DNA from: Methylorubrum extorquens
GTDB taxonomy: Bacteria > Pseudomonadota > Alphaproteobacteria > Rhizobiales > Beijerinckiaceae
Reading direction: 5' to 3'
DNA: 32,000 nucleotides
Assembly: GCA_900234795.1 (NCBI GenBank)
Contig: LT962688.1
Location: forward strand, 2,160,001 to 2,192,000
Below the pieces are notes generated by a model that worked only from the letters and a program-made list of their open reading frames with translations, searched no databases and was not told the origin of the DNA. Shown in pieces: positions 656 through 27,289 of the stretch (position 1 is its first letter; each line of letters starts with the position of its first letter). Position numbers and translations under genes: made by a program.

Positions 656-840
656 GATCCGGCGGAGTGCGGCCTGCTCAGCGCTGCCGGGGCCTGTGCC
701 GTGCGCGCCGCACCGGCCGATCAGGGCGCGGCACAGCCAAAGATCCCGAATGATGACGCATCAAGGATTTGATACCCAGGCAGTGCGATCCACAGCGATG
801 GAGCCCGCATTAAGGGTTTTGGGACACCGCGTTGGTATCG

Positions 841-4314: not shown

Positions 4315-4325
4315 GGGAGACGGCG

Positions 4326-6074: not shown

Positions 6075-6088
6075 GACCGGAGACATCC

Positions 6089-6322: not shown

Positions 6323-6327
6323 GCCCG

Positions 6328-8353: not shown

Positions 8354-8562
8354 AACACATTCTTCTCCTGTCAAACATTTCGCGAGAAGAGATTTTCTTC
8401 GGCTCAAGAACAGTTGCGCATCGATCCAGAAACTCGACTTTCCAACGAAATTAATTGCTCGCCGCAACGGCTGTCCGAACGGCACATCCACGAGGTCGCC
8501 GCCCTCGCGAGCGGCCGACGCACTCGCCTCGACGGACTTGCCTCGCCTCACGGAGCCTCACG

Positions 8563-10005
8563 GTGACACAGCATATCCCGCTCACCCGCCGCCTCGCAGC
8601 GCTCCTCCTGACCGCCACGGTACTCGGCGCGGCGGGCTCCGGGGCAGCCCGGTCCGAGACGATCCGGGTCGCCGTCGGCACGCAGGACACCACGATCAAT
8701 TGCGCCACCGGCGGCCTGCTGATCCGCGAGTTGAAGCTCCTAGAGAAGTTCCTGCCCCGCGACGGGCGCTACAAGGACGCGACCTACGACATCCAGTGGC
8801 GCAACTTCACCAGCGGCGCGCCGCTCACCAACGAGATGGTGGCGGGCAAGCTCGATCTCGGGGCGATGGCCGACTTTCCCGGCTCGCTCAACGGCCACGC
8901 CTTCGCCAAGGCCGGGCGCCGCTCGCTGTTCATCTCGGTGCTCTCGGGCAGCCTGCACGGCAGCGGCAACGGCGTCGTCGTGCCGAAGGAATCCCCCGTG
9001 CAGTCGTTCGCCGAACTCAAGGGCAAGACGATCTCGGTGCCGTTCGCCTCGACCGCGCACGGGCTGCTCTTGCGGGCGGTGAAGGCGCAGGGATGGGAGC
9101 CCGGCCGCGACGTCACCATCATCACCCAGGCCCCGGAGGTGGCGGGCGCCGCGCTGCTCGCCAACAAGATCGAGGCACATGCCGACTTCGTGCCCTTCGC
9201 CGAGCTGTTCCCCTGGCGCGGCTTCGCCCGCAAGATCTACGATGGCGCCCAGGCCGACGCCCCGACCTTCCACGGCGCGCTCGCCGATGCCGACTATGCC
9301 GAGAAGTACCCGGAGATCGTTACCGCCTACCTGCGCGCGGCACTCGAAGCGGACCGGTTGATCGCCGCCGAGCCGGAAAAGTATTCCGAACTCATCGAGC
9401 GGGTGACGGGGATCGAGGCGGAGGTCGCCTACCTGTTCCACGGGCCGCTCGGCCTGCAGACCCGCGACGTGACCTGGAAGCCGGCCTACCGGCAGGCGGT
9501 AAAGACCTCCTTCGAGACGCTCAAGCTGCTGAAGAAGGCCGATTCCGACATCGACCTCGACCGCTTCGTCGATGACCGCTTCATCCGCGCGGCGGCGGCG
9601 CAGGCCGGTCTCGACTACGAGGCGCGGCTCAGGGACGAGGCGCCGCTGCCGCTCGCCGCGCAGGACAGCGCAACGGGCAAGCCGATCACTGATCCGTCCC
9701 GCGTGGCGCAACTCTGGATCCGCGGCGAGGACAAGGTCCGCCCCTACGCCTCGCCGGAAGCGGCGTTCGCGGCGCTCGCCGAGCTGGAAGGCCAGGGGCG
9801 CGAGGCCCGCGCCGTCTACGCCCAGGATCGGGGCAACGGGATCAAGCTGTTCGCCACCCAGGCCTGGTACGTGCGCGACGCGCAAGGGCATCTGAGCGCC
9901 TTCCTGCTCAAGGGCGACGCACAGGCCCACGCCGCGGCGAAAGGGGGCGACGTGCTCGATTTCGCCGCCGCGCGGAGCGGCCACGCGCGGCTCTCGGCCC
10001 GATGA
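8563..10005 (+). CDS. Periplasmic ABC-transporter substrate-binding protein (NitT/TauT, NMT1/SsuA-like) with an extra ~135-aa C-terminal domain
   Basis: GTG start at 8563 gives VTQHIPLTRRLAALLLTATVLGAAGSGAARS (signal peptide). The earlier part of ORF 8455-10005 is Arg/Pro-rich junk. The SBP body ends near DRFVDDRFIRAA (~nt 9600). The rest is an additional domain (see findings). Confidence 0.85.
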   Translation: MTQHIPLTRRLAALLLTATVLGAAGSGAARSETIRVAVGTQDTTINCATGGLLIRELKLLEKFLPRDGRYKDATYDIQWRNFTSGAPLTNEMVAGKLDLGAMADFPGSLNGHAFAKAGRRSLFISVLSGSLHGSGNGVVVPKESPVQSFAELKGKTISVPFASTAHGLLLRAVKAQGWEPGRDVTIITQAPEVAGAALLANKIEAHADFVPFAELFPWRGFARKIYDGAQADAPTFHGALADADYAEKYPEIVTAYLRAALEADRLIAAEPEKYSELIERVTGIEAEVAYLFHGPLGLQTRDVTWKPAYRQAVKTSFETLKLLKKADSDIDLDRFVDDRFIRAAAAQAGLDYEARLRDEAPLPLAAQDSATGKPITDPSRVAQLWIRGEDKVRPYASPEAAFAALAELEGQGREARAVYAQDRGNGIKLFATQAWYVRDAQGHLSAFLLKGDAQAHAAAKGGDVLDFAAARSGHARLSAR

Positions 10006-10889
10006 GCCCCTTGATGAACCCCTTGATGAGCCCGTCGGTGAGCGCCTCCGGAATCGAGACGGCCGCCCCGGTCCGCGTGCCGCGCGGGCGGCCGGTCCGG
10101 TTTGCGCGACCATCGACGCTCGGGCGCTTGGCGCTGCGCGGCGTCGCCCTGGCCCTGAGCCTGCTCGCTTGGCACCTCGCGGCGAGCAGCCGGCTCGATC
10201 TCGGCCTCGTCACCTTCCGCAACGTGCCGACTCCGGCGGCCGCCGCGCAGGCGGCCTGGGCGCTGGTCCACGCCCCCGCGCTGCCGACCCATCTGGGCGC
10301 CAGCCTCGCCCGGGTGCTGTCGGGCTTCCTCGCCGCTTTGGGCGTGGGCGTCGCCCTCGGCCTCGCCATCGGCCGGTCGCGGCTCGCCCGCGACCTGCTG
10401 CTGCCGCCGCTCGAAGTGCTGCGCCCGATCCCGGCGGTGGCCTGGATCCCGCTGGCGATCCTGATGTTCCCGTCCTCCGAGGTCTCGATGGCCTTCATCA
10501 CCTTCACGGGCGCGCTGTTCCCGATCCTGCTCAACACCGTGCACGGGGTGGAATCGGTGCATCCCCGGCTTGTCGCCGCCGCCCGCAGCCTCGGCGCGGG
10601 CGATGCCGCGATCCTGCGCGAGGTGATCTTGCCGGGCGCCGCGCCCAGCATCGTGACGGGGGCGGCGATCGGCATGGGCACGGCGTGGTTCTGCCTCGTG
10701 ACCGCCGAGATGATCTCCGGCCAGTACGGGATTGGCTACTTCACCTGGGAATCCTATACACTGCAGAACTACGACGACATCGTCGTCGGCATGCTGCTGA
10801 TCGGCCTCCTCGGGATGGGATCCAGCCTCGTCGTGCGCTGGCTCGGCGACCGGGCGACACCCTGGGTCGGCGCGGGAGGCCAGCGATGA
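10002..10889 (+). CDS. ABC-transporter permease (NitT/TauT family)
   Basis: ATG overlaps the SBP stop (ATGA at 10002-10005). Multi-TM protein with an EAA-like loop (AARSLGAGDAAILREVILPGAAPSIVTG). In-frame alternative starts at 10014, 10026 and 10038. Confidence 0.9.
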   Translation: MSPLMNPLMSPSVSASGIETAAPVRVPRGRPVRFARPSTLGRLALRGVALALSLLAWHLAASSRLDLGLVTFRNVPTPAAAAQAAWALVHAPALPTHLGASLARVLSGFLAALGVGVALGLAIGRSRLARDLLLPPLEVLRPIPAVAWIPLAILMFPSSEVSMAFITFTGALFPILLNTVHGVESVHPRLVAAARSLGAGDAAILREVILPGAAPSIVTGAAIGMGTAWFCLVTAEMISGQYGIGYFTWESYTLQNYDDIVVGMLLIGLLGMGSSLVVRWLGDRATPWVGAGGQR

Positions 10890-11767
10890 GCGCGGGAATG
10901 GCACCGGTCCAGGCCGGCCCTCTCACCGGCACCGATCCTCTTGCCGACACCGATCCCTTTGCCGACGGTCACGTCGCCATCCGGGATGGGGCGATCCGGC
11001 TCGGTCGGGGCGATGCGGCGTTCGACGTGGTCGAGAACATCAGCTTCGACATCCCAGGCCGCCAGTTCGTCTGCATCCTCGGGCCCTCGGGCTGCGGAAA
11101 GTCGACCCTGCTCGGGGCGGTGGCCGGGCACCTCGCCCTGTCGCGCGGCAGCGTCAGCCTCGACGGGCGGGCGATCGCCGGGCCGCATCCCGACCGCGGC
11201 ATCGTCTTCCAGCAGCACACCCTGTTCCCCTGGCTCAGCGTGATCGACAACGTCGCCTTCGGCATGAAGATGAAGGGCGTCGGCCGCAGCGAGCGCCGGG
11301 AACGGGCCCGGGCGCTGCTGGCGCAGGTCGGGCTGTCCGACTTCGCCGAGCGCTATCCGGCCGAATTGTCGGGGGGCATGCAGCAGCGGGTGGAGATCGC
11401 CCGCGCGCTGATCAACCGGCCTCGGGTCCTGCTGATGGACGAGCCGTTCGGGGCACTCGATGCGCAGACGCGGCTGACGATGCAGGAACTGCTGCTCGAC
11501 ATCTGGACGCGCCACCGCACCACGATCCTGTTCGTGACGCACGACATCGACGAGGCCCTGTTCCTGGCGGATCGGCTCGTCGTGATGACGCCGCGGCCGG
11601 GGCGCATCCTCGACGACATTCCCCTTGATTTCGGGCGCCCGCGGGACCGCGGCCTGATCACCGATCCGCGCTTCACGGCGATCAAGCAGCGCTGCCTCGC
11701 GCTCCTTCACAGCGATCCCGGCCATGTGCCGCTCGCCCGCTTGAGCCCGATCGGAGTTCCGGCATGA
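10886..11767 (+). CDS. ABC-transporter ATP-binding protein (NitT/TauT family)
   Basis: ATGA overlap with the permease stop (10886-10889). Walker A GPSGCGKST, signature LSGGMQQR, Walker B VLLMDEPFGALD, H-loop VTHD. Confidence 0.92.
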   Translation: MSAGMAPVQAGPLTGTDPLADTDPFADGHVAIRDGAIRLGRGDAAFDVVENISFDIPGRQFVCILGPSGCGKSTLLGAVAGHLALSRGSVSLDGRAIAGPHPDRGIVFQQHTLFPWLSVIDNVAFGMKMKGVGRSERRERARALLAQVGLSDFAERYPAELSGGMQQRVEIARALINRPRVLLMDEPFGALDAQTRLTMQELLLDIWTRHRTTILFVTHDIDEALFLADRLVVMTPRPGRILDDIPLDFGRPRDRGLITDPRFTAIKQRCLALLHSDPGHVPLARLSPIGVPA

Positions 11768-12420
11768 CCTCGAATGCCCCCTCGTCGCCGACCATCGCGT
11801 ACTATTTCAGCTTCCTCTCGCTGTGGTCCTATGTCGGCAGTCGCGCCTTCCGCGACCTCGCCGAACGGAACGGCGCGCGGATCGTCTACAAGCCGGTCGA
11901 TCTGATGGCAGTCTTCGCCGCCGGCGGCGGCAAGCCCGTCAAGGAGAGGCCCCTGCAGCGGCAGGCCTACCGCCTCGTCGAAATGCAGCGCTGGCGCCGC
12001 ATCCGCGGCATCCCGCTGGTGCTGCACCCGAAATTCTACCCGGCCGACCCCTCCCTCGCCCACCGGGTCCTGCTGGCCGCCCTCGACGAGGGCAGCGCGG
12101 TCGCCGACTTCGTCCATGCCGGCCTCAGCGCCGTCTGGGCGGACGAACGCGACATCGCCGATCCCGGCACGATCATCCGGCTCGCCGATGCGGCCGGGCT
12201 CGACGGGAAACGCCTGCTCGCCCGAGCCGACGAGCCGGCGTTCCGCGAGGCCGAGGCGGCTCTGACCCGCGAGGCGATCGGGCGGCAGGTGTTCGGGGCG
12301 CCGTTCTATGTCTACCGCGATGAGCCGTTCTGGGGTCAGGACCGGCTCGACCTGCTGGAGGCGGCGATCTCGGGCTCGGACGCGCCGATCCCGCTGCCGG
12401 ACCTCTCCGCTTCCGGCTGA
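11764..12420 (+). CDS. DsbA-family thioredoxin-fold protein, 2-hydroxychromene-2-carboxylate isomerase-like
   Basis: ATGA overlap with the ATPase stop (11764-11767). IAYYFSFLSLWSYVGS near the N-terminus and GAPFYVYRDEPFWGQDRLDLLE near the C-terminus are characteristic of HCCA-isomerase/DsbA-like proteins (recollection). Confidence 0.8.
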   Translation: MTSNAPSSPTIAYYFSFLSLWSYVGSRAFRDLAERNGARIVYKPVDLMAVFAAGGGKPVKERPLQRQAYRLVEMQRWRRIRGIPLVLHPKFYPADPSLAHRVLLAALDEGSAVADFVHAGLSAVWADERDIADPGTIIRLADAAGLDGKRLLARADEPAFREAEAALTREAIGRQVFGAPFYVYRDEPFWGQDRLDLLEAAISGSDAPIPLPDLSASG

Positions 12421-13745
12421 GCCCGGCTCTGCCCGAGCAGGGCGTTGAGCAGGATGGCCGCGATCGCGGTGAGCAGGATCGGATCCTTCACGATCGGCCC
12501 GAACGCGTCGGGCACGGCGCGGAAGAAGAGCGGCTGCACGATCGGGATCAGGCCGATCCCCAACGAGGCGGCGATGATCAGCGCGTCGCGGCTGCCCGCG
12601 CGGGCGTAATCGACCTGGGCCAGGATGCGGATGCCGGTGGCTGCCACCATGCCGAACATCACCAGCGCCGCCCCGCCGAGCACCGGCTGCGGGATCGAGG
12701 CCGCCAGATAGGCGACCTTGGGCACGAGGCCGAGCACCAGCATGATCCCGCCGGCGGCCGCGCAGACCCAGCGGCTGTGCACGCCGGTGAGTCCGACGAG
12801 GCCGACATTCTGCGAATAGGACAGGTAGGGAAACGTGTTGAGCAGGCCGCCGATCAGCGTGCCGAGCGCGTCGGCGCGCAGGCCCCGGCGGATGTCCTCG
12901 GTCCCGATCTTGCGCCCGGTCATGACGCCGAGCGCCAGGAACATCCCGGTCGCCTCGATGAAGACGATCGTCATCACGAGGCACAGGATCAGGCAGGGCA
13001 CGAGGTGGAAGGTCGGCAGCCCGAACTGCAGGGGCAGCACCACCCGCAGCCACGGTTCGGCGCCCAGGCCCTCGAAGCTCGTCCAGCCGAGTGCCAGGGT
13101 GACGGCGTATCCGAGCCCGATCCCGAGGAGCACGGCGACGCGCCCGACGAAGCCCGGACCGAACCGGGCAATGAGCAGGGTCGCGGCGAGCACGCCCGCC
13201 GCCACCGCGACCGTGCCGGGCGCACCGAACGCGGCGGTGCCCGCACCCCCGCCCGCCCAGCCGACGGCGACGCGGGTGAGCGCGATGCCGATCATCAGGA
13301 GGATCGTGCCGGTCACGACCGGTGGGAAGAACCGCATCACCTGGCCGATGAAGGGCGTGACAAGGAGCCCGTAGAGGCCGCCGACGATCACCGCGCCGTA
13401 GATGCCGGTGAGGCCGACGCCGGGTATCGCCGCGATGGCGAGCAGCGGCTGGATCGCCACCGCGGTCACGCCCATGATGACGGGAAGCCGGATGCCGAAC
13501 GGGCCGATGCCCACCGTCTGGATCAGCGTGGCGATGCCGCAGGCGAACAAGTCGGCGTTGATGAGGAGCGCGATCTGGTCCTTCGGCAGGTGCAGCGCCC
13601 CGCCGACGATCAGCGGCACGGCGATGGCGTTGGCGTACATGACGAGCACGTGCTGCAAACCGAGCACGAACAGGCGCGGCGCGGGCGGCACCGCATCGAC
13701 GCCGTCGCGCGGCGGGCCGCCGGGAAGGGGATCGACCGGCCTCAT
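12336..13745 (-). CDS. Nucleobase:cation symporter-2 (NCS2, xanthine/uracil permease-type) transporter
   Basis: 469 aa. LGLQHVLVMYANAIAVPLIVG, multiple TM segments and SYSQNVGLVGLTGVHSRWV are typical NCS2 motifs. The start ATG overlaps the stop of the upstream monooxygenase gene (ATGA at 13742-13745). Confidence 0.88.
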   Translation of the reverse strand: MRPVDPLPGGPPRDGVDAVPPAPRLFVLGLQHVLVMYANAIAVPLIVGGALHLPKDQIALLINADLFACGIATLIQTVGIGPFGIRLPVIMGVTAVAIQPLLAIAAIPGVGLTGIYGAVIVGGLYGLLVTPFIGQVMRFFPPVVTGTILLMIGIALTRVAVGWAGGGAGTAAFGAPGTVAVAAGVLAATLLIARFGPGFVGRVAVLLGIGLGYAVTLALGWTSFEGLGAEPWLRVVLPLQFGLPTFHLVPCLILCLVMTIVFIEATGMFLALGVMTGRKIGTEDIRRGLRADALGTLIGGLLNTFPYLSYSQNVGLVGLTGVHSRWVCAAAGGIMLVLGLVPKVAYLAASIPQPVLGGAALVMFGMVAATGIRILAQVDYARAGSRDALIIAASLGIGLIPIVQPLFFRAVPDAFGPIVKDPILLTAIAAILLNALLGQSRAQPEAERSGSGIGASEPEIAASSRSSRS

Positions 13746-14788
13746 CCCTTCACTCGCGAAAACACCTGCGCGGCGAAGCGGGCCATCTCCGCCTCGAACG
13801 GCTGGAATTGCAGCATGAACAGCTCGATTCCCGCCGCGTGGAAGGCGCGGATGCGCTCGGCCACCCCATCGTAGCTGCCGACGAGCCCGGCCGCCGTGCC
13901 GCCGTTGGTGCCGACATGGTGCGCGGCCGCCGCATCGGTCTTGGCGAACATCACGCTCGCCGCGTCCGTGCGCGCCCGGGTGTCGGCGCGGATGGCCTCA
14001 TCGCGGCGGCTCAAGCTCAGAAGCCGGGCGAATTCGTCCTGCGCCTCGGCTTCCGTCTCACGGGCGATCACGAAGGCCGAGAGCCCGTAGCGCAGACGGC
14101 CCTGCGCGGCCGGGCGCCGGGCGACGTCGGCGATGAGATCGGCGACCGCGGCCAGCGGCTGGCCGTTGATGAACCAGACGTCGCCGTGATCGGCCACCAG
14201 CGCGCGGGCCGGCTCGGACTCGCCGCCGACATAGATCGCCGGCCGCGCCCGGTAAGTGCCCGCGGGCTTGAGCTGATAGTCCTCGACGCGGAAGTGCCGG
14301 CCCTCGTGGGTGACGCGCTCGCCCCGCAGCAACCGGTCCACCAGGGCGATCCATTCGCGGCCATAGGCGTAGCGCTCGTCATGGGCCGGGAACGGCAGGC
14401 CGGCCCGCTCGAATTCGGCGCGGTTCCAGGCGTTGACGAGGTTGAGGGCGAAGCGCCCCCGGCTGACCTGCTCGATCTGCAGCGCCATCTTGGCGAGCAA
14501 CACCGGATGGTAGAGCCCCGGCTTGATCGCCGCGATGATCTCGATCCGCTCGGTGAGCGCCGCCAGCGCGGCCGAGGCGGTCCAGGCCTCCAGCTGGTCG
14601 CGGGTCTCGTCGTAGGGGTTCACCGTATGCTGGGCGACGAGGACGGAATCGTAGCCGAGGCGCTCGGCCTCGAGCACGAGGGCGCGGTTGCGCGCCCAGG
14701 AGGCGTCGTGCGGCTCGTCCGGATCGTGGCGGGCGGCGCGGGAGCCGTGGACCGGCGCCCAGACGCCGAAGCGAAGCGGATGGCTCAT
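13742..14788 (-). CDS. Luciferase-like (LLM) flavin-dependent monooxygenase, SfnG/SsuD-clade-like
   Basis: Only the last 348 aa of track ORF 13742-16222 are real, starting at MSHPLRFGVWAPV (ATG 14788). Contains RGRFALNLVNAWNRAEFERAGLPFPAHDERYAYGREWIALVDRL and GRHFRVEDYQLKPAG. These resemble dimethylsulfone/alkanesulfonate monooxygenases as I recall them. Confidence 0.85.
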   Translation of the reverse strand: MSHPLRFGVWAPVHGSRAARHDPDEPHDASWARNRALVLEAERLGYDSVLVAQHTVNPYDETRDQLEAWTASAALAALTERIEIIAAIKPGLYHPVLLAKMALQIEQVSRGRFALNLVNAWNRAEFERAGLPFPAHDERYAYGREWIALVDRLLRGERVTHEGRHFRVEDYQLKPAGTYRARPAIYVGGESEPARALVADHGDVWFINGQPLAAVADLIADVARRPAAQGRLRYGLSAFVIARETEAEAQDEFARLLSLSRRDEAIRADTRARTDAASVMFAKTDAAAAHHVGTNGGTAAGLVGSYDGVAERIRAFHAAGIELFMLQFQPFEAEMARFAAQVFSRVKG

Positions 14789-14793
14789 CGCGC

Positions 14794-15762
14794 TCACCCG
14801 CGTCCTGCCGGCGGCTGCCAGAGCGATACGGCGGTGGCGTCGAGCCGGCGCGGGATCAGCCCGGCCTCGTGGAAGGTGTCGGCGATGGCCTGCTGCTCGG
14901 AGAGCGCGGCCCGATCGACCGCCTTGACCGCGTAGGAGCGCCGCTCGTTGACGGTGGCGACCACCGCCGGCGGCAGGTCTCCCCAGATCGGCGCCAGCAG
15001 CGCGACGGCCGCCGACGGGTTGGCCTTCACCCATTGTCCCGCCTCGACCAGGGCGGAAAAGACCGTGGCGACGACCTCGGGCTGCTCGGCGGCGAAGCTG
15101 TCGTTGACCGTGTAGTAGCGGTTGTAGCTCGACAGGCCGGTGGCGTCGGTCAGCACCCGCACCGGGCGCTTGGCCTGTACGATGGCCAGGAACGGATCCC
15201 AGATCGACCACGCCTCGATGCCGCCCTGCTCGAACGCCGCGAGCCCGTCCGCCGCCTCCAGATAGGCCGGGCGGATGTCGGCGAATCGCAGGCCCCCCCG
15301 CTTCAGCGCGCCCGCGAGGATGAAGTGGCAGCCCGAGCCCTTCGAGACGCCGACCGTACGGCCTTTCAGATCCGCGATCGTGCGGATCGGCGACTCGTCC
15401 GGCACGATGATCGCCTCGGCCTGCGGCGAACCGGCCTCCATAGCGTAGAAGGTCAGCGGGGCTCCGGCCGATTGGGTGAAGATCGGCACCGCGTCGGCCA
15501 CATCGGCGTGGAGATCGACCGCGCCGGTGTTCATCGGTTCGAGCACCTTGGTGAACAGGTGCCAGCTCACGCCGAGCCCTTGCGCGCCGAGCCGCTCCTC
15601 CAGGGTGCCCCGCGCCTTCAGCACGGTGAGGAGCGTCGAGGAGCGCTGATAGCTGAGCTTCACCGTCCGTCCGGCGCGGGCCGGACCGGAGCGACCGAGG
15701 ACGAGGCCGGCGGCGAGTGTGGCACTCGATGAAAGGGCGAAGTGGCGGCGGGTCAGGCTCAT
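14794..15762 (-). CDS. Periplasmic sulfonate-type (SsuA-like) substrate-binding protein
   Basis: Real start MSLTRRHFALSSSATLAAGLVLG (twin-arginine-like signal) at ATG 15762; the upstream part of track ORF 14794-16146 is out-of-frame. SBP-like body (TIADLKGRTVGVSKGSGCHF, EAWSIWDPF). The start overlaps the cytochrome c stop (ATGA at 15759-15762). Confidence 0.85.
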   Translation of the reverse strand: MSLTRRHFALSSSATLAAGLVLGRSGPARAGRTVKLSYQRSSTLLTVLKARGTLEERLGAQGLGVSWHLFTKVLEPMNTGAVDLHADVADAVPIFTQSAGAPLTFYAMEAGSPQAEAIIVPDESPIRTIADLKGRTVGVSKGSGCHFILAGALKRGGLRFADIRPAYLEAADGLAAFEQGGIEAWSIWDPFLAIVQAKRPVRVLTDATGLSSYNRYYTVNDSFAAEQPEVVATVFSALVEAGQWVKANPSAAVALLAPIWGDLPPAVVATVNERRSYAVKAVDRAALSEQQAIADTFHEAGLIPRRLDATAVSLWQPPAGRG

Positions 15763-16343
15763 CGGGTCTCCGTGTGCGCGGTGGGCCGGGCGGAAGGGCG
15801 AGCGGAGGGATTCTGCGGCGCGATGTCGGGGCGCGGATCGGCGGTGAAGCCGTCGCGGTTCGGCATGGCGACCCTGGGCAGGGAGGCCGCATCGAGGCTT
15901 GCCTCCTCCGGCAGCAGGCCGTTGAGGTGCAGCACATAGGCGCTGACCGCGTAGGTTTCGTCCGGGCTGAGCGATTGCGGCGCGTCGAACGGCATTGCCC
16001 GGCGCACGTAGTCGAACAGGGTCGTGGCATAGGGCCAGAAGCTGCCGACCGTGCGCAGGGGTTTTGCGCTCGCGAGGCTGCCCCGGCCGCCGGCCAGCGG
16101 CTCGGCGGCGGCCCCCTCGCCGCGGGCGCCGTGGCAGCCGGCGCAACGCGCGGCGAACAGGACCGCGCCGTCGCGCACGCTGCCGTGGCCGGGCGGCAGG
16201 CCCTGGCCGTCGGGCCGGACATCGATGTCCCAGGCGGCGATGGTCTCAGGGCTTGCTGGGCGGCCGATGCCGAGGGGGTCCGCCGCGGCCGGGCCGGCGA
16301 GGGTGAGGCTCAGGACGAGCGGGAGAAGCGCCTCAGGCCGCAT
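15759..16343 (-). CDS. Monohaem c-type cytochrome, SoxD/SorB-like partner of the molybdoenzyme
   Basis: Signal peptide MRPEALLPLVLSLTLAGPAAA. One CxxCH (CAGCH). WDIDVRPDGQGLPPG and FWPYATTLFDYVRRAMPF motifs, as in SoxD-type cytochromes (recollection). The start overlaps the upstream gene end by 11 nt. Confidence 0.8.
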   Translation of the reverse strand: MRPEALLPLVLSLTLAGPAAADPLGIGRPASPETIAAWDIDVRPDGQGLPPGHGSVRDGAVLFAARCAGCHGARGEGAAAEPLAGGRGSLASAKPLRTVGSFWPYATTLFDYVRRAMPFDAPQSLSPDETYAVSAYVLHLNGLLPEEASLDAASLPRVAMPNRDGFTADPRPDIAPQNPSARPSARPTAHTETR

Positions 16344-17553
16344 AGGTCACCGCCCCGTTCGCGCCGAGGCTCCAGCCGAACACCGCGTTGTTGTGGTAAA
16401 AGGAGCGGGTGCCGCGCACGGCGACCAAGGCCTCGCGACTCGGCTGCACGTAGCCGGTCTCGTCCCGCGCCCGGCTCAGCAGTTTGGCCGGTCCGCCCTC
16501 CCAACGCCACGGCAGGCGGAAGCGGGTGAAGCAGCGCGGCAGCACCGGCCCTTCCAGATGCGCCTCCGCCCAAGAGGCGCCGCCATCGGTCGAAACCTCG
16601 ACGCCGGCGATGCGCCCGCGCCCGGTCCAGGCGAGGCCCCGGATCTCGTGAAAGCCGGGCTCCCGAAGCTGCTGGCCGCCCGACGGCGCGGTGATGACGG
16701 ACTTGGCCTCCATCACGAAGGTGAATTGCCGCGCCGTGCCGTCCGGCATCAGGTCGGTGTATTTCGAGGTTTCCTCCCGCGTCTGGAACGGCCGGTCGCC
16801 GACCTTCAGGCGGCGTAGCCACTTGATGCTGAGGTTGCCCTCCAGCCCCGGCAGGAACAGCCGCAGGGGATAGCCCTGCTCCGGCCGCAGCCGCTCGCCG
16901 TTCTGCGCGTAGGCGAGGATCGCCCCGTCGAGCGCGTCGAGGGGGATCGAGCGGGTCATGGCGCAGGCATCCGCCCCCTCCGCCAGGATCCAGGCGGCGC
17001 CCGGCTGCACGCCGACCTCGGCGAGCAGGGTCGAGAGCTCGACGCCGGTCCACTCGGCGCAGGAGATCAGGCCGTGGCTGTCCTGCACCGTCCAGTCGGG
17101 CTTGGCCCCGAGCCAGGGCGTGTTGCCCGAACATTCGAGGAAATGCAGCCGTGAGACCGCGGGGAAGCGGAGGATGTCGTCCATGGTGAGGATCAGCGGG
17201 CGCGCGACGAGGCCGTGCACCACGAGGCGGTGCCGGTCCGGATCGATCGCCGGGATGCCGGCGTGGTGGCGCTCGTAATGCAGGCCGTTGGGCGTGAGGA
17301 TGCCGTGCAGGCCATGGAGCGGCGTCACCGTGGCCACCGCCCCGGGAAAGGGCGGCGGCAGCCGGGGATAGCGCGCAAGCGTCTCCCGCGGGCCGGGCCG
17401 GCCATAGCCCGGAGCGGTGGCGCCCTGCTCGCGGGTCCAGGGCGGCACGTCGAGGGGGCCTGCCTCCGCCAGGGCTCCGGTGGCGGCGCCCGCCCCGGCA
17501 AGCGAGCCGGCCAGGCGTAGGAAGGCGCGGCGGTTTTCCATGACCTCGCCCAT
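16333..17553 (-). CDS. Molybdopterin sulfite dehydrogenase / sulfite-oxidase-family enzyme (SoxC/SorA-type)
   Basis: Twin-arginine signal (M)ENRRAFLRLAGSLAGAGAATGALA. NGLHYERHHAGIP, HGLVARPLILTMDDILRFPAVSRLHFLECSGN and the conserved Cys ligand region. Start is ambiguous between ATG 17553 and ATG 17541. Confidence 0.9.
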   Translation of the reverse strand: MGEVMENRRAFLRLAGSLAGAGAATGALAEAGPLDVPPWTREQGATAPGYGRPGPRETLARYPRLPPPFPGAVATVTPLHGLHGILTPNGLHYERHHAGIPAIDPDRHRLVVHGLVARPLILTMDDILRFPAVSRLHFLECSGNTPWLGAKPDWTVQDSHGLISCAEWTGVELSTLLAEVGVQPGAAWILAEGADACAMTRSIPLDALDGAILAYAQNGERLRPEQGYPLRLFLPGLEGNLSIKWLRRLKVGDRPFQTREETSKYTDLMPDGTARQFTFVMEAKSVITAPSGGQQLREPGFHEIRGLAWTGRGRIAGVEVSTDGGASWAEAHLEGPVLPRCFTRFRLPWRWEGGPAKLLSRARDETGYVQPSREALVAVRGTRSFYHNNAVFGWSLGANGAVTYAA

Positions 17554-17554
17554 C

Positions 17555-18595
17555 CTATCGCGCGCTCGCCTCGGCCTGGGCCGCCTCGAAGAAGCGGGAG
17601 TCGAACAATCCCTCCGTCGGCGGCGTCTGCTCGCTGATGCCGAGCTTGGTCTGGAGGGCCAGCATCGCGCCGGTCGCCGCCACGATGGTGCGGGGATCGG
17701 CGACATACTGGGTCGCCGGCGAGGCGAGCGCGTTGCGCAGGGTCGCGGCGGTGACGATGCCCTTGCCGAGCGCGGCCTCCACCGCGGGAAGCGCCCGCTC
17801 GGGGTCGCGCTTGATCAGATCGACGGCCCGCACGATCGCCGAGACGAGGGTGCGCACGGCCGCCGGATTCTGCTCGAGGAAGGCGCCGCGCACCGCCACA
17901 ACGGTGCCGGGCTGGCCGGGAAACAGCTCGCTGCCGTTAGCGACGAGGCGGATCTGTGGGTTGCGCTCGCGGATGATGCTGAGGCCCGGTTCGCGCACCG
18001 TCGCGGCCTCGACCGCGCCGGCGAGGATCGCCTGCTGCGCCGCGTCGATGCCGAGTGTCAGGATCTGCACGTCGGCCGGATCGACCTTGTGGACCTCGCG
18101 CAGCCAGTAGGACAGGTTGGTGTAGGGGATCGAACCGGGCGGCTGCGTGGCGATCTTGGCCGGGCGGCCCGTCTCCTCCCGGAAGCGCCGAAAGGCGGCG
18201 GCCGGTGCCGTGCCGTCGGTGAGCGGTCCGGCGAGCTTGGCGCCCGCCACGAGCACGTTCTCGCCGATAGCGGTCGCCGCCACCACCCGCAGATCGACCC
18301 CGCGCGTCCGCCCGATCGCCACCGGCGTGATCCCGGCGACGTAGACATCGACCGTGCCGCTCGCCGCTGCCTGCACCGCGTTCGGCCCGGAATCGAACAG
18401 CGTTACGGTGGGCTTGAGCCCGCCGGCCCCGAGCCAGCCCTCCCGCTCGGCGACGAAGAGCGGCGCGGCACCGAGCACGGGGATTGCGCCGATCCGCACC
18501 GGCAGGGTCTGAGCCTGGCCTTGCGCCAAGGCGGCACCCGAGGCACCGAACAGCGCGAAGAGAAGAATTGCCCACCGGATGAAGTGCGATGACAT
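17555..18595 (-). CDS. Periplasmic substrate-binding protein (NMT1/SsuA/TauA-like), first gene of the minus-strand operon
   Basis: Start taken at MSSHFIRWAILLFALFGASGAALA (ATG 18595, signal peptide). LPVRIGAIPVLGAAPLFVAEREGW and GTVDVYVAG are typical of this SBP fold. The stop is 1 nt from the molybdoenzyme start. Confidence 0.8.
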   Translation of the reverse strand: MSSHFIRWAILLFALFGASGAALAQGQAQTLPVRIGAIPVLGAAPLFVAEREGWLGAGGLKPTVTLFDSGPNAVQAAASGTVDVYVAGITPVAIGRTRGVDLRVVAATAIGENVLVAGAKLAGPLTDGTAPAAAFRRFREETGRPAKIATQPPGSIPYTNLSYWLREVHKVDPADVQILTLGIDAAQQAILAGAVEAATVREPGLSIIRERNPQIRLVANGSELFPGQPGTVVAVRGAFLEQNPAAVRTLVSAIVRAVDLIKRDPERALPAVEAALGKGIVTAATLRNALASPATQYVADPRTIVAATGAMLALQTKLGISEQTPPTEGLFDSRFFEAAQAEASAR

Positions 18596-18643
18596 GATCG
18601 TTCTTTTATTTGCGAGATCGAGATAAGATCTATTCATATCCTT

Positions 18644-18658
18644 TTGTATTATGTACAA
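18644..18658. promoter_or_regulatory. Palindrome TTGTA-N5-TACAA in the AT-rich divergent control region (LysR-type T-N11-A-like box candidate)
   Basis: Read directly: cttTTGTAttatgTACAAgtc. The 145-nt divergent intergenic region (18596-18740) is very AT-rich against a GC-rich background. Confidence 0.3.
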
Positions 18659-18740
18659 GTCATGCTAATAGGCAAGACATCTTCGGGCGACAAGGCTAAA
18701 GCCCTGAGCAAATCGGTGATGGAGGACGAGGATCTTGGCG

Positions 18741-21149
18741 ATGCAGGACGAGAGCGAGCGTCGGCAGCGGCTGGGCGAGCACGTGGCTCCGGCCGGGCTC
18801 TACGCGGCGATCAAGGCGCGCCCCTTCCTCGGCAGCATCGCCTGCAGCCACGACCGGCTGGTGGCGGGGAGCTGGCACGAGATCGTGCTGACCTACGAGG
18901 TCGGCGCCTGCGGCATCGCCGACGGGGCGACTTTCAAGGCGACGTTCAAGTTCTACTCCGACTGGGCGCTGTTCCAGACCGCCGACCCGTCGGCGGCCAA
19001 CTACGTCAGCGCGGAATACGAGGCCGGCCCGCTGCTGCCAGGGCAGTCGCCCGCGACCGTGCAGTCGCTCAGCGTGCGCTTCGACCAGAAGGGCCACGAG
19101 CGCCCGTTCCAGAAGGCCGTGATCGTCGATGTGGTCGACGGCTATCTCAATGCGGGCGACCGCATCGTCATCCGGCTGGGCGACCGGCAGGCTGGGGGGC
19201 CGGGCACCCGCGTCCAGACCTTCGTCGAGGACGGCTTCCGCTTCCGCTGCTACGTCGACCCGCTCGGCACCTCGCGCTACGTGGCGGTGCCGGGTGATCC
19301 GGTCATCGCGATCGCTGCCGGGCCGCCGGAGCGGATTCAGCTCGGGGCCCCCCGCTTCGTGGCGGAGGGCGTCGCGCCGCCCCTGACCGTGGCCCTGCTC
19401 GACCGCTGGGGCAACGTCGCCCGCGACCTCGGCGGCCCGCTCGACATCGCCGCCACCGCGGAGGGGCGCGAGGTCTATCGCCGCCGTCACGCCCTGCCGG
19501 AGCAGGGCTGGGCAACGCTGCGGGTCGAGGATCTACCGCCCGTCTCGGGCGAACTGCGCATCGGTGCCGCGCGTCCCGGCGGCCGGGACGTGGCGGAGGG
19601 GGTGGCCTTCGTCGCCGGGCTCGCCGACGCACCCGTGCCCCGGGCGCTCTACGGCGATCTCCACGTCCACGCCCACGATACGGTGGGCACCAACAGTCCG
19701 GCCTACAACGCAGCCTATGCCCGCGACGTAGCGGGGGTCGATGTCTACGGCTACACCGCCAACGACTTTCAGATCACCGACGAAGGCTGGCGTGAGGGCG
19801 TCGCGGTGACGGCCGGCTTCGACGTGCCCGGCCGCTTCGTCGCCTATTCCGTGCAGGAATGGTGCGGCAGCTCGACCGCGGGCGGCGACCATCAGGTGCT
19901 GTTCCTCGGCGACGATCCGCCCGGCTTCCCCTTCAACGAGCGGGGCGAGCACAACCGCACCTTCCTGTGGAACGAGAGCATGGGCGGCACCGGCGTCCAG
20001 GTCGGGCGCTGGCCGGTCGAGGATCTGTGGGCGGCCTACGCGCACGATCCGGAGAACCACCTCGTCATCCCGCATGTCGGCGGGCGCCGCTACATCCCAG
20101 ACTGGCACCATCCGGAGTTGGAACGCCTCGTGGAGATCGCCTCCGCCTGGGGACAGTTCGACTGGCTCTACCGGGACGTGATCGCCCGCGGCTACCGGCT
20201 CGGCGTCTGTGCCAACGGCGACGAGCACCGCGGACGGCCGGGCGGCGGCGCGCCGGGCGTGCAGGTGTTCGGCGTGCGCGGCGGGCTCACCGGCATCCTG
20301 GCAGACAGCCTCGACCGCCGCGCGGTCGGCCGCGCCTTGCGGGCGCGCCACACCTTCGCGACGACGGGCGAGCGCAGCGCCCTGCTGGTCCGCTGCGGCC
20401 CGCACCGCCAGGGCGACGCCTTCACGCACGAGGGCGCTGCGCGGCTCGACTATCACTTCCTCGGCGAGGCCGGCTGGGAGGAACTGACCGCCCACGATCA
20501 TACCGGCGAGATCTGGCGGCGCGACCTCCACGCCGAATGCGGATTCTCCGAGCGCCTCGTGCGCCTGCGCTTCGGCGGTGCGCGCATCCGCGACCGCTAT
20601 CGCTGGGCGGCCTGGGAGGGACGCATCCGCATCCTCAACGGCACGATCCGCCGCATCGTCCCCCAGGGCTTCGAGCATGCCGAGGAGACGGCGTGGCGTT
20701 CAGGCCCGACCGAGATCGCCTTCCGCTCCGAGACTTACGGCGACAGCGATGCCATCGAGATCGATATCGGTGGTCTCGAGGAATGCCGCATCCTAGTCGA
20801 GGGCACGATCGGCGGCTTCGTGAAGGTCGGCGATCCGCGCCGGCCCGCCCCCTTCGTCCATGCTCCGGATTTCCGTTTCGAATGCACCGGCCGCGAATTG
20901 ATCGCGGCGGGCGCCCTGCAGCGCGAGCTTGGCGGGGCTGGGCTGTTCGTGGCGCTGGAGCGCCTGACGGAAGCGCCGCTGCCGCGGGACGTCGCCGGGC
21001 ATATCCAGGTGGAGCCGGAGAACGCCCCGTTCGGCTTCCGGCCGGTCTACTTCTCGGGCCGCCAGCGCGACGGCAGCCGCGTCTGGTCCTCGGCACAGTT
21101 CATCACCTTCGCGGACGGGGGCGCGGCGAAGCCCATCTCACCCAAATGA
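18741..21149 (+). CDS. Large (802 aa) uncharacterised protein: N-terminal ~300-aa beta-rich domain, central PHP/CehA-McbA-like metal-dependent hydrolase core, C-terminal ~250-aa unknown domain
   Basis: ATG 18741 preceded by GAGGA (18728-18732). Core motifs: YGDLHVHAHD (nt 19650-19679), VQEWCG, VIPHVGG, CANGDEHRGRPGGG, RHTFATTGER. Together these resemble the His/Asp/Glu metal ligand set of PHP-fold phosphoesterases. Coding is clear from the long ORF, codon bias and non-junk composition. Function is unknown. Confidence 0.8.
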   Translation: MQDESERRQRLGEHVAPAGLYAAIKARPFLGSIACSHDRLVAGSWHEIVLTYEVGACGIADGATFKATFKFYSDWALFQTADPSAANYVSAEYEAGPLLPGQSPATVQSLSVRFDQKGHERPFQKAVIVDVVDGYLNAGDRIVIRLGDRQAGGPGTRVQTFVEDGFRFRCYVDPLGTSRYVAVPGDPVIAIAAGPPERIQLGAPRFVAEGVAPPLTVALLDRWGNVARDLGGPLDIAATAEGREVYRRRHALPEQGWATLRVEDLPPVSGELRIGAARPGGRDVAEGVAFVAGLADAPVPRALYGDLHVHAHDTVGTNSPAYNAAYARDVAGVDVYGYTANDFQITDEGWREGVAVTAGFDVPGRFVAYSVQEWCGSSTAGGDHQVLFLGDDPPGFPFNERGEHNRTFLWNESMGGTGVQVGRWPVEDLWAAYAHDPENHLVIPHVGGRRYIPDWHHPELERLVEIASAWGQFDWLYRDVIARGYRLGVCANGDEHRGRPGGGAPGVQVFGVRGGLTGILADSLDRRAVGRALRARHTFATTGERSALLVRCGPHRQGDAFTHEGAARLDYHFLGEAGWEELTAHDHTGEIWRRDLHAECGFSERLVRLRFGGARIRDRYRWAAWEGRIRILNGTIRRIVPQGFEHAEETAWRSGPTEIAFRSETYGDSDAIEIDIGGLEECRILVEGTIGGFVKVGDPRRPAPFVHAPDFRFECTGRELIAAGALQRELGGAGLFVALERLTEAPLPRDVAGHIQVEPENAPFGFRPVYFSGRQRDGSRVWSSAQFITFADGGAAKPISPK

Positions 21150-21438
21150 TCGTCGGCGTCTGCTCGGCGGCGAGACGGACGCGACCGTCCGGCGTCCGAA
21201 CACGACGATGTACCGCGGAGTGAAGGAAAACGCCCTTCTCGCCGAGGATGGATATCAAGAATGACCGTCCATTTGGCATCGGATGCAGAGTTTGTCTTTG
21301 CAAAGTCGCTTGCTGCGAAGGAAATCGAACAGAATTCCTTGAGATTGGGGCGGGAATTGCCGATTCCCTGCACGGATTGCCGCCGGGAGCCAGGTCCGCA
21401 GACCGGGCCGACAGCGGCCCGTGAGGGATGACCGGACG

Positions 21439-22662
21439 ATGTCGCAGATCGATGCAGGCTGGGGCGCCGGCCCGAGTGGACGCTACGAGGAACTCGCGGG
21501 TCGCTTCCGGCCGGTCTTCGGCGAGATCCGTTCCACCGCGGTCGCGCGGGACGCCGAGCGGCGCTTGCCGCATGCCGAACTCGGTTGGCTGAAGGAAGCG
21601 GGCTTCACCACCCTGCGTCTGCCCGCCGAGTCGGGCGGGCATGGCGCGAGCCTGCCCGAACTCTTCAACCTGCTGATCGAGCTGTCGGCGGCCGATTCCA
21701 ACGTTACCAATGCGCTGCGCGCGCATTTCGGCTTCACCGAGGACGTGCTGACCGCCGCCTCGGCGGAATGGCGTACGCGATGGATCGCCCGGCTCGCCGC
21801 GGGCGAGACGGTCGGCAGCGGCGTGTCCGAGACGGGGCCGGCCAAGGTCGGGCAGTTCGACACGGTGGTGCGCCGACGCGGCGACGAGCGAGTGGTGGAT
21901 GGCCGGAAATTCTACACGACCGGCGCGCTCTTCGCCGACTGGATCCACCTTTCGGCCCAGGACGAGGACGGCGCGTCCGTGGTCGCCGCGGTGCCGACGC
22001 GAGCGCCCGGCGTCACGATCGAGGACGATTGGGATGGCTTCGGGCAGGCCCTGACCGCGAGCGGCACCGCCCGCTTCGAGGGCGTCGTGCTGGCACCGGA
22101 GCTGATCAAGCCGGAGACGGTGCGCTTTCCCTACGCCATGGCCTTCTTCCAGCTCGTGCATCTGGCAACGCTCGCCGGCATCGCTCGGGCGGCGGCCGAG
22201 GATGCGGCGCGGCTGGTAGCGGCGCGCACCCGGGTCTACAGCCACGGGAATGCCGACCGCACGGCGGACGATCCGCAAGTTCTGGCTGTGGTGGGCCGCG
22301 TGCGCGGCAATGCCTATGCAGCCGGTGCCCTCGTGCTGAAGGCGGCCGAGGCGGTGCAACGCGCGGCGGAGGCGGTGCAGCTGGGCGGGCGCGAAGCGGC
22401 GGAGCCGATCACGGCCCTCGCCGATGTCGAGGTCAACCAAGCCGTCGCCGTGGTGACCAACCTCGTATTGGAGGCGACCACGGTGCTGTTCGACGCCCTC
22501 GGTGCGTCCGCCGTGAAGGCCGAGGACGGCCTTGATCGCTACTGGCGCAACGCACGCACCATCGCCTCACACAACCCGCGGATCTACCGCGAGCGCAGCG
22601 TCGGCGCCTTCGCGGTCAACGGCACGCGTCCACCCAGGGAGTTCCGCGTCGGTACGGCCTAA
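21439..22662 (+). CDS. Acyl-CoA-dehydrogenase-fold oxidoreductase, SfnB/DszC-like (sulfur-acquisition type)
   Basis: ATG 21439 preceded by GAGGGA. 407 aa. ERRLPHAELGWLKEAGFTTLRLPAESGG, FYTTGALFADWI, DRYWRNARTIASHNPRIYRERSVG. The C-terminal motif is what I recall from SfnB-family proteins. Confidence 0.8.
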   Translation: MSQIDAGWGAGPSGRYEELAGRFRPVFGEIRSTAVARDAERRLPHAELGWLKEAGFTTLRLPAESGGHGASLPELFNLLIELSAADSNVTNALRAHFGFTEDVLTAASAEWRTRWIARLAAGETVGSGVSETGPAKVGQFDTVVRRRGDERVVDGRKFYTTGALFADWIHLSAQDEDGASVVAAVPTRAPGVTIEDDWDGFGQALTASGTARFEGVVLAPELIKPETVRFPYAMAFFQLVHLATLAGIARAAAEDAARLVAARTRVYSHGNADRTADDPQVLAVVGRVRGNAYAAGALVLKAAEAVQRAAEAVQLGGREAAEPITALADVEVNQAVAVVTNLVLEATTVLFDALGASAVKAEDGLDRYWRNARTIASHNPRIYRERSVGAFAVNGTRPPREFRVGTA

Positions 22663-22924: not shown

Positions 22925-23215
22925 ATGGCGTTTCGACCCCTGCACGACCGCGTGCTGCTGCGCCGCATTGAGAGCGACGAGCGGACGAAGGGTGGCATCA
23001 TCATCCCCGACACCGCGAAGGAGAAGCCGCAGGAGGGCGAGGTCGTGGCCGTCGGACCCGGTGCCCGCGACGACCAGGGCCGCGTCACCGCGCCGGACGT
23101 CAAGACCGGCGACCGCGTGCTGTTCGGCAAGTGGTCCGGCACGGAGATCAAGGTCGACGGCCAAGACCTCCTGATCCTCAAGGAATCCGACATTCTCGGC
23201 GTGATCACCGCCTGA
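22925..23215 (+). CDS. groES: Co-chaperonin GroES
   Basis: [49 protein letters not shown]...: canonical GroES, 96 aa. Confidence 0.95.
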
Positions 23216-23226
23216 GCAAGCTCTGA

Positions 23227-24876
<1,650 letters not shown>

Positions 24877-27288: not shown

Positions 27289-27289
27289 C

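Follow-up and report, generated by a model that had tools for sequence, protein, structure and literature searches.

Linkage of a SoxCD-type enzyme to putative organosulfur-scavenging genes in an operon of Methylorubrum extorquens

Introduction

In the usual picture of organosulfur scavenging with two-component flavin oxygenases, the released sulfite passes directly to sulfite reductase. The periplasmic sulfite dehydrogenase SorT of Sinorhizobium meliloti is induced by sulfite-generating compounds and is required for optimal growth on taurine (PMC3511301), the methanesulfonate (msm) cluster of Filomicrobium is flanked by a TauE/SafE exporter and by SoxCD (PMC4433239), and sulfite oxidation followed by re-import has been proposed for desulfurisation in Rhodococcus (PMC8557817). 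We describe here a 32,000-nt stretch of Methylorubrum extorquens DNA, hereafter the window, in which a six-gene operon combines a SoxCD-type molybdoenzyme pair with an SsuA-family binding protein and a luciferase-like monooxygenase (LLM). An original prediction, made from the letters and a list of open reading frames (ORFs) alone, had set this linkage of desulfonation and sulfite dehydrogenase genes apart from the textbook ssu/msu/sfn layout; in view of the S. meliloti and Filomicrobium precedents (PMC3511301, PMC4433239), its degree of novelty was overstated. Functional coupling of desulfonation to periplasmic sulfite oxidation is supported by the recurrence of SoxCD near SsuA-LLM, SfnB-like and sulfonate-type ATP-binding cassette (ABC) genes, and the operon as a whole is a lineage-specific mosaic of three parts rather than an old functional unit.

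Results

Organisation of the operon

The operon occupies positions 12336-18595 on the minus strand and consists of six ORFs encoding, in order, an NMT1_2-type binding protein (SBP1), a SoxC-type molybdopterin subunit, a SoxD-like monohaem cytochrome c, an SsuA-family sulfonate-binding protein, the LLM and an NCS2 permease (Table 1). All six translate cleanly, and when ORFs and junctions were recomputed the gene order, coordinates, families and spacing came out exactly as first described: the first two genes are 1 nt apart, the second and third overlap by 11 nt, the fourth and fifth are 5 nt apart, and the two other junctions (third-fourth and fifth-sixth) are ATGA overlaps. Families were assigned from Pfam and NCBIfam model scores read against curated cut-offs, together with sequence comparisons to PDB proteins. 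Independent gene callers place the same six genes in M. rhodesianum (L172) and on a JGI metagenome contig (L173), with junctions near-identical to those of the window except that the SsuA-LLM gap is 4 nt instead of 5. The gene spacing suggests that the six genes are co-transcribed. The sole sigma-70-like promoter match on the operon strand, TTGCCT-16-CATAAT, lies upstream of the first gene, and we found no terminator-like sites on the minus strand inside the operon. SBP1 may alternatively start at 18637 instead of 18595, the former being the start annotated publicly for the M. extorquens protein SOR28979.1, to which it is 100% identical.

The divergent intergenic region upstream (18596-18740) is AT-rich, in a window and genome of ~70% G+C. 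We also note a 22-nt sequence that is imperfectly repeated, directly and in tandem, with 73% identity between the copies (18706-18727 and 18728-18749); the repeat runs into the start of the divergent DUF3604-like gene and may have a regulatory role. The window gave no matches in scans with Rfam or for tRNA genes. It had been remarked that the operon lacks an ABC permease, an ABC ATPase and a flavin reductase, and indeed none is present among the family matches of the six genes; neither a flavin reductase nor a TauE/SafE exporter was found among the scanned ORFs of the window.

The SoxC-cytochrome c pair

The molybdoenzyme passes the equivalog cut-off of the SoxC model TIGR04555 (564.7 bits versus 420) and scores only 140 bits against the SorA model (cut-off 600) and 124 against the SorT model (cut-off 570). 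It contains the Pfam domains Oxidored_molyb and Mo-co_dimer, carries a twin-arginine translocation (Tat) signal (RRAFLR), and retains the Mo-ligand cysteine, with 'FLECSGN' aligning with 'FCECAAN' of Paracoccus pantotrophus SoxC (2XTS_A), to which it scores 349 bits. The cytochrome has a signal peptide and a single CAGCH motif, and scores 164.5 bits to P. pantotrophus SoxD (2XTS_B). Model score, domains, Mo-ligand cysteine, Tat signal and the adjacent SoxD-type cytochrome all agree on a SoxCD-type pair.

The genetic context is not that of a canonical Sox system. Neither the window nor the 80 metagenome contigs with the closest SoxC relatives yielded a SoxY-like ORF (C-terminal GGC[GA]G), and no SoxYZ, SoxAX or SoxB component was found beside SoxCD among the scanned window ORFs. 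A canonical Sox context was rejected on the missing SoxY-like ORF and on the unrelated genes that adjoin distant stand-alone SoxCD pairs. In a neighbour-joining tree, P. pantotrophus SoxC falls outside all of the stand-alone SoxC sequences compared.

Recurrence of SoxCD beside sulfonate-type genes

Synteny was sampled at 80 genome loci around LLM relatives, 57 in Methylobacterium and 23 outside the genus, onto which the window proteins were mapped. The SsuA gene lies directly upstream of the LLM gene at 55 of the 57 Methylobacterium loci, and this pair is the only genus-wide conserved core. An SfnB-like gene is divergent from it at most of these loci, and at four it is part of an acyl-CoA dehydrogenase (ACAD)-SoxC-cytochrome c operon. 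All six genes in window order occur only in sp. Leaf456 (among the 80 loci) and in M. rhodesianum; the first five without NCS2 are present in sp. R2-1 and sp. NPDC097213, and M. organophilum likewise has five genes.

The SoxC-cytochrome c pair is situated within 10 kb of SsuA-LLM at 12 of the 57 Methylobacterium loci, and SoxC is that close to the LLM gene at none of the 23 outside the genus. The 12 loci fall into three arrangements: SBP1-SoxCD-SsuA-LLM as in the window; an operon of ACAD (SfnB-like), SoxC and cytochrome c divergent from SsuA-LLM, with an ACAD-SoxC spacing of ~10 nt; and a sulfonate-type ABC operon divergent from SoxCD, which is followed by the serine acetyltransferase gene CysE (L026). 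In the neighbour-joining tree the SoxC of the second arrangement belongs to a different lineage from that of the other two, and the two lineages indicate that the association of SoxCD with SsuA-LLM arose at least twice.

Scanning metagenomes with SoxC gave 80 contigs, 33 of them with SoxC at ~61% identity or more, and sulfonate-type neighbours are present on 10 of these 33. One contig (L093) has an SsuD-like LLM (241 bits to the SsuD model) 1 nt upstream of SoxC. On another (L095), genes for an orthologous LLM (67% identity), a permease, an ATPase, a binding protein, an SfnB-like protein, SoxC, cytochrome c and a flavoprotein are all co-directional, as is a TauD-like gene farther on, and on six (L102, L113, L115, L117, L119 and L120) ABC genes for a permease and/or ATPase precede SoxCD. 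Remoter stand-alone SoxCD pairs are found in unrelated contexts. The proposal that uptake, desulfonation and sulfite detoxification are coupled in one unit thus stands in part, in that the linkage is not a product of chance (12 of 57 loci, two SoxC lineages, unrelated metagenome contigs), whereas the set of six genes is a mosaic.

The luciferase-like monooxygenase

The closest solved relatives of the LLM are 3RAO from Bacillus cereus (193 bits) and 8VW6, labelled 'alkanesulfonate monooxygenase' (170 bits), followed among further PDB proteins by SfnG 8T0U (144), MsuD (134), SsuD (111), SmoC (90) and RutA (79). A search of the literature found no published function for 3RAO or 8VW6. Against NCBIfam the LLM scores 218 bits to SfnG TIGR04021 (cut-off 383) and 162 to SsuD TIGR03565 (cut-off 518), with weaker scores to the non-sulfur families RutA (101, cut-off 498) and NtaA/DmoA (89, cut-off 280), and it lies below every cut-off tried. 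Clustering with non-sulfur clades, which would have told against a sulfur role, is therefore not seen, as sulfur families score best and RutA reaches only 101 bits. Orthology to SsuD, SfnG or MsuD is not sustained either, both because all cut-offs are missed and because key substrate residues of both types are absent.

In SfnG, the dimethylsulfone-binding residues R55, W121, N297 and Q53 and an aromatic cage of W11, Y60, F267, W285 and Y296 are reported to be strictly conserved (PMC11588060). Residues were compared in an alignment of the LLM with SfnG, SsuD, MsuD and 120 orthologues, in which the SfnG lid is aligned with uncertainty. The LLM keeps SfnG W11 (as W10), N116, W121, the HDERY motif and N297 (as N295), and it has V-A-Q-H in place of SfnG T52-Q53-I54-R55, so that Ala52 replaces Q53 and His54 replaces R55, both invariant in the 120 orthologues. 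The position of Y60 is His or Tyr, and W285 and Y296 align to Asp and to Thr or Ser. The SfnG motif GGSS is GGES in the LLM. The pair Arg226/His228 binds sulfonate in SsuD and MsuD; here 'GLSAF' aligns with their 'GIRLH', placing Ser237 and Phe239 at these positions, and this is conserved across the orthogroup. The GGES and G-x-[AS]-x-[FY] motifs are shared with 3RAO and 8VW6. These replacements, invariant or nearly so in 120 orthologues, set the LLM apart as an uncharacterised subfamily of its own among the group C oxygenases related to sulfur. In Bradyrhizobium, Paraburkholderia, Rhodopila and others, its orthologues (68-72% identity) neighbour ABC genes or genes for NMT1 binding proteins.

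Binding proteins and the converging importer

The two binding proteins of the operon differ in kind. The SsuA-family model TIGR01728 accepts the product of the fourth gene, which has a Tat-like signal (TRRHF) and scores 187 bits to E. coli SsuA (2X26), and it leaves SBP1 at 92.2 bits, below the cut-off of 163.5. SBP1 is periplasmic, with a Sec-type signal peptide and zero cysteines, and its PDB matches (CmpA, NrtA and 3QSL) are weak (38 bits). The protein cluster of SOR28979.1 also takes in strains PA1 and CM4, and SBP1 orthologues at 55-58% identity are encoded in ordinary operons of binding protein, permease and ATPase. We considered SBP1 as a regular partner of SoxC and rejected this beyond a few species, as its orthologues in Bosea and Beijerinckia have an ordinary ABC setting.

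A plus-strand operon converging on the six genes encodes a large NMT1-type binding protein (SBP0) together with a permease and an ATPase of NitT/TauT type. This importer is likely to be the partner of the two 'orphan' binding proteins, and the guess that they feed a transporter encoded at 10002-11767 was a reasonable one. SBP0 is unusual in its length, with the NMT1 domain extending to about residue 377 of 516 and the additional C-terminal ~130-140 residues matching no family.

The NCS2 permease and its convergent partner

The NCS2 permease, at 500 bits versus a cut-off of 414, belongs to the xanthine permease subfamily (TIGR03173). The NAT signature motif is Q-N-x-G-x-x-x-x-T-G, and it is intact here as QNVGLVGLTG, a Gln-initial sequence of the xanthine/urate type. 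The protein is ~70% identical to ordinary alphaproteobacterial purine permeases, whose genes include one standing alone in Methylocella and one in M. oxalidis beside allophanate hydrolase and urea carboxylase genes. As a possible sign of an altered substrate site, the NCS2 clades were compared; 22 positions are clade-specific (e.g. Gln99 versus Ser), and most of the changes are conservative.

The last gene of the converging ABC operon encodes a DsbA-fold protein without CxxC, of the HCCA-isomerase/kappa glutathione S-transferase (GST) type, and its 3' end overlaps that of NCS2 by 85 nt (12336-12420). M. rhodesianum (L172), M. durans (L087) and sp. BE186 (L089) share this overlap of 85 nt, a metagenome-assembled genome (MAG; L090) has one of 8 nt, and a kappa-GST-like gene converges on NCS2 in every examined context of orthologues of at least 73% identity. 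In M. durans and sp. BE186, NCS2 follows directly after SBP1-SoxC-cytochrome c with no SsuA-LLM, a DUF3604-like gene is divergent, and the converging kappa-GST-like gene ends an ABC-OsmC operon. We note that this ABC operon includes two genes (L087 8006-9635, L089 10012-11653) that are absent from the window, one of the OsmC family and one for a 358-residue protein that keeps just the N-terminal domain of acyl-CoA dehydrogenases. NCS2 follows a different LLM and a MetQ-like lipoprotein in M. pseudosasicola, and in one MAG it is paired with the kappa-GST-like gene alone.

In Methylobacterium sp. R2-1 and sp. NPDC097213 most of NCS2, starting at about codon 22, is missing together with the whole DsbA-like gene. 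Because ~65 nt homologous to the NCS2 5' end are retained in both, this absence is probably a deletion. The 5' remnant in these sister strains, together with NCS2 orthologues of 83-86% identity in the sulfur islands of three other species, led us to reject, in its simple form, the view that NCS2 is a chance neighbour or recent insertion. The contexts of the 73-86% identity clade instead show it to be a recurrent yet separable island member, whose association with SoxCD and the kappa-GST-like gene is closer than that with the LLM. A role as sulfonate importer is not credible given the xanthine/urate signature, its absence from two sister strains that have the other five genes, and its occurrence elsewhere after SoxCD with no LLM.

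The surrounding sulfur island

The operon is part of an organosulfur island that extends from ~4.3 to ~28.6 kb of the window (Table 1) and encodes further sulfonate-type ABC genes. On its left are genes for an AprA-like flavoprotein and a HEAT-repeat protein, which are fused in the PRK13800 model, and for a Crp/FNR regulator, all left of the converging ABC operon. This AprA-like/HEAT/Crp/ABC-importer block is kept in the closest strains and also adjoins SoxCD on a metagenome contig (L096). The 802-residue DUF3604-like protein encoded divergently from the operon has no relatives that we could find in NCBIfam or PDB. Its gene is co-inherited with SBP1-SoxCD in every genome that has that trio, and it always diverges from SBP1-SoxC-cytochrome c in strains of the M. 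extorquens group as well as in M. organophilum, M. rhodesianum, M. durans and sp. BE186. Our literature searches on DUF3604 and on sulfur starvation or sulfonate use in M. extorquens returned nothing useful.

We also note several other features of the region. A groES-groEL pair (22925-24837, plus strand) has an intact groES (22925-23212) and a groEL that is broken across frames 1, 3 and 1 and lacks residues ~369-384; as Leaf456 groEL (L001) is in one frame, the window copy is either a pseudogene or reflects sequence errors. A groES-groEL pair is also found among TauD and LLM genes in Paraburkholderia (L082). The neighbouring 2-oxoglutarate (2OG)-Fe(II) oxygenase and O-acetylhomoserine sulfhydrylase genes at the right of the island occur as a pair directly upstream of SsuA-LLM in Methylobacterium sp. 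Leaf112 (L057). At the left edge of the window, a GGDEF-EAL protein gene (832-2868, plus strand) is situated in a stretch of distinctly lower G+C content (57-62%) than the rest.

Table 1. Features of the operon and its neighbourhood, in window coordinates
Feature	Coordinates	Strand	Remarks
SBP1, NMT1_2-type binding protein	17555-18595	-	SsuA_fam 92 bits, below cut-off 163.5
SoxC-type molybdopterin subunit	16333-17553	-	TIGR04555 565 bits versus cut-off 420
SoxD-like monohaem cytochrome c	15759-16343	-	one CxxCH; 164 bits to 2XTS_B
SsuA-family sulfonate-binding protein	14794-15762	-	168.8 bits versus cut-off 163.5
Luciferase-like monooxygenase (LLM)	13742-14788	-	Pfam Bac_luciferase; predicted cytoplasmic, group C two-component
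NCS2 permease, last operon gene	12336-13745	-	pbuX subfamily model 500 bits versus cut-off 414
Sigma-70-like promoter match	18648-18675	-	TTGCCT-16-CATAAT; sole such match on operon strand
Segment missing in sp. R2-1 and sp. NPDC097213	11758-13681		NCS2 from ~codon 22 and whole DsbA-like gene
SBP0, large NMT1-type binding protein	8455-10005	+	converging ABC operon
NitT/TauT-type permease	10002-10889	+	converging ABC operon
NitT/TauT-type ATPase	10886-11767	+	converging ABC operon
DsbA-fold protein without CxxC, HCCA-isomerase/kappa-GST type	11764-12420	+	N-terminal YYFSFLSLWSY; last gene of converging ABC operon
AprA-like flavoprotein, then HEAT-repeat protein	4287-7299	+	PRK08275 1097 bits; adenylyl-sulfate reductase alpha model 262 bits
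802-residue cytoplasmic protein	18741-21149	+	divergent from operon; 42-residue weak DUF3604 match, HVHAHD (PHP-like) motif
SfnB/DszC-like group D flavin-dependent oxygenase	21421-22662	+	TIGR04022 281 bits, below cut-off 431
2OG-Fe(II) oxygenase and O-acetylhomoserine sulfhydrylase	26265-28612	-	neighbouring pair; oxygenase PF03171, not TauD

Discussion

We favour, as a probable though far from secure reading, a sulfur-scavenging operon within an organosulfur island, in which exported sulfite is oxidised by the periplasmic SoxCD-type enzyme. It builds on the families of the six products, their signal peptides and compartments, the tight gene geometry, and the recurrent independent placement of SoxCD by LLM, SfnB-like and sulfonate-ABC genes. 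Capture of organosulfur compounds would fall to SBP1, SBP0 and the SsuA homologue, which would deliver them to the single NitT/TauT-type ABC importer of the converging operon. The cytoplasmic LLM, drawing FMNH2 from a reductase whose gene lies elsewhere, would act with the SfnB-like oxygenase to oxygenate these compounds and cleave their C-S bonds, ultimately giving sulfite, part of which would be reduced for cysteine synthesis. The remaining sulfite would leave through an exporter encoded elsewhere and be oxidised to sulfate by SoxCD, whose electrons would pass through the monohaem cytochrome to respiration. Such oxidation would remove a toxic product, may recycle the sulfur as importable sulfate, and presumably would be regulated with sulfur supply. 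NCS2 would be a later, separable addition.

Several considerations weigh against this proposal. There is a gap in topology, in that the LLM is cytoplasmic, SoxCD is periplasmic and the window yielded no sulfite exporter; with neither an exporter nor a flavin reductase found there, two of the steps depend on genes elsewhere. Canonical P. pantotrophus SoxCD reportedly works on SoxY-bound sulfur and not on free sulfite, as Zander and colleagues are said to have described in 2011, and sulfite as the substrate here is therefore an assumption. Sulfite is also no more than the presumed product of the LLM, which has neither the Arg/His pair of SsuD and MsuD nor several of the SfnG residues. SoxC lies within 10 kb of the LLM gene at just 12 of 57 Methylobacterium loci and at none of the 23 outside the genus, and oxidising sulfite while scavenging for sulfur looks wasteful.

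The host is a methylotroph, and the same genes might serve dissimilatory use of C1 organosulfur compounds such as methanesulfonate or dimethylsulfone as carbon, with the LLM and SfnB-like oxygenases generating formaldehyde and stoichiometric sulfite that is exported and oxidised by SoxCD with conservation of energy. A respiratory-type dehydrogenase is most sensible when sulfite is in excess, and SfnG, the best characterised relative of the LLM, releases a C1 unit. Methanesulfonate-growing Methylobacterium isolates are known and the Filomicrobium msm cluster is accompanied by TauE and SoxCD, although the known methanesulfonate-using Methylobacterium strains have Rieske-type msmA (PMC4433239). 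The neighbours here are moreover of assimilatory type (the O-acetylhomoserine sulfhydrylase in the window, CysE after SoxCD in L026), the dimethylsulfone- and sulfonate-binding residues are not conserved in the LLM, and the island is without formaldehyde-handling genes, so that we regard carbon use as unlikely, if worth keeping in mind. It is rather unlikely, too, that SBP1-SoxCD is a self-standing unit for detoxifying or scavenging external sulfite or bisulfite, such as arises from SO2 on leaves, by conversion to importable sulfate, SsuA-LLM having merely been spliced in within the M. extorquens group. The 1-nt spacing of SBP1 and SoxC, the presence of SBP1-SoxC-cytochrome c without SsuA-LLM in M. 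durans and sp. BE186, and the common occurrence of stand-alone SoxCD pairs in varied contexts of soil metagenomes are all in keeping with this. The only PDB relatives of SBP1 include the small-oxyanion binders CmpA and NrtA, but these matches are weak (38 bits), SBP1 scores higher on the SsuA_fam model (92 bits) and its relatives are part of ordinary ABC importers; the repeated independent placement of SoxCD by cytoplasmic oxygenase genes argues for sulfite made internally.

Two further alternatives appear less probable. The operon could be the product of a recombination hot spot that shuffles modules, giving six-gene read-through with no pathway meaning, and its mosaic nature, the absence of NCS2 and DsbA from sister strains, the variable order of modules between species, and the nucleobase-type signature of NCS2, with no obvious sulfur role, are what this would predict. 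However, genes of the same kinds have come to lie side by side time and again, their stop and start codons overlapping, both in two SoxC lineages and on unrelated metagenome contigs, and we consider absence of coupling very unlikely. Canonical SoxC oxidises carrier-bound sulfur, and by analogy with SoxY-bound sulfur the substrate of SoxCD might be an organosulfur intermediate, either a sulfinate or a ligand presented by SBP1; the enzyme is of SoxC rather than SorA or SorT type (565 versus 140 and 124 bits), and a binding-protein gene immediately precedes soxC in five genomes. SBP1 has no cysteine to carry sulfur, however, the other arrangements have SoxCD without SBP1, and there is no biochemical precedent, making this, in our view, the most improbable of the explanations. 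A bolder conjecture, which we think quite unlikely, is that SBP1-SoxC-cytochrome c-NCS2 with the kappa-GST-like and DUF3604/PHP-like genes forms an unrecognised Methylobacterium module for a sulfur heterocycle or small sulfur oxyanion, in which SoxC rather than SorA or SorT would have been recruited for a sulfinate or a ligand presented by a binding protein and the purine-type permease would move the organic partner, with the LLM separately representing a new, widespread family of C-S-cleaving flavoenzymes with its own substrate.

A periplasmic respiratory-type sulfite dehydrogenase is repeatedly wired to scavenging genes, both at this locus and among many soil bacteria not yet cultured, which suggests that these organisms regularly export and oxidise sulfite as part of scavenging. 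M. extorquens is a leaf coloniser and a model methylotroph amenable to genetics, which makes the coupling idea directly testable. Two leads are worth following, namely the LLM subfamily and the SoxCD/NCS2/kappa-GST-like/DUF3604-like module. The former is conserved at 68-99% identity from Methylobacterium to Paraburkholderia and carries a public label, 'alkanesulfonate monooxygenase', that is without support; in the latter, the recurrence of a nucleobase-type permease and kappa-GST pair in sulfur islands is a loose end of wider reach.

The individual components are each related to a known protein, with departures. Both subunits of the pair are homologous to P. pantotrophus SoxCD (2XTS), sharing the Mo-ligand cysteine, the Tat signal and a c-type haem partner, but the window cytochrome contains a single haem domain, the window yielded no SoxY-like ORF, and the context is one of organosulfur scavenging and not thiosulfate oxidation. 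3RAO and 8VW6 are the closest solved relatives of the LLM, although identity is only moderate. The permease resembles PbuX/XanQ-type NCS2 proteins in passing the subfamily cut-off and in its intact signature, and differs in that genes of its clade (at least 73% identity) are tail-to-tail with a kappa-GST-like gene and that the Methylobacterium copies belong to sulfur islands, not to surroundings of nitrogen or purine genes.

Relative to the ssu, msu and sfn systems (SsuEADCB, MsuEDC and SfnG), the locus is similar in having an SsuA-family protein, an LLM nearest to SfnG, MsuD and SsuD, an SfnB-like oxygenase and a nearby NitT/TauT importer. It is unlike them in that the operon is without an SsuE/MsuE-type reductase or an ABC permease and ATPase, the transporter being encoded in a converging operon, and in that it includes a sulfite dehydrogenase and a nucleobase-type permease. 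The closest precedents for the pairing remain SorT and the Filomicrobium cluster, where a periplasmic molybdenum sulfite-oxidising enzyme is likewise encoded or induced with a cytoplasmic sulfite-releasing pathway. Those systems are dissimilatory, with taurine or methanesulfonate as carbon and desulfonation by Xsc or the Rieske-type MsmABCD, whereas the window has assimilatory-type two-component flavin oxygenases and SsuA-type proteins encoded co-directionally with overlapping codons, and no exporter gene was found in it. The pairing is thus a genuine variant of a known theme that recurs in other soil bacteria, and not a new kind of system.

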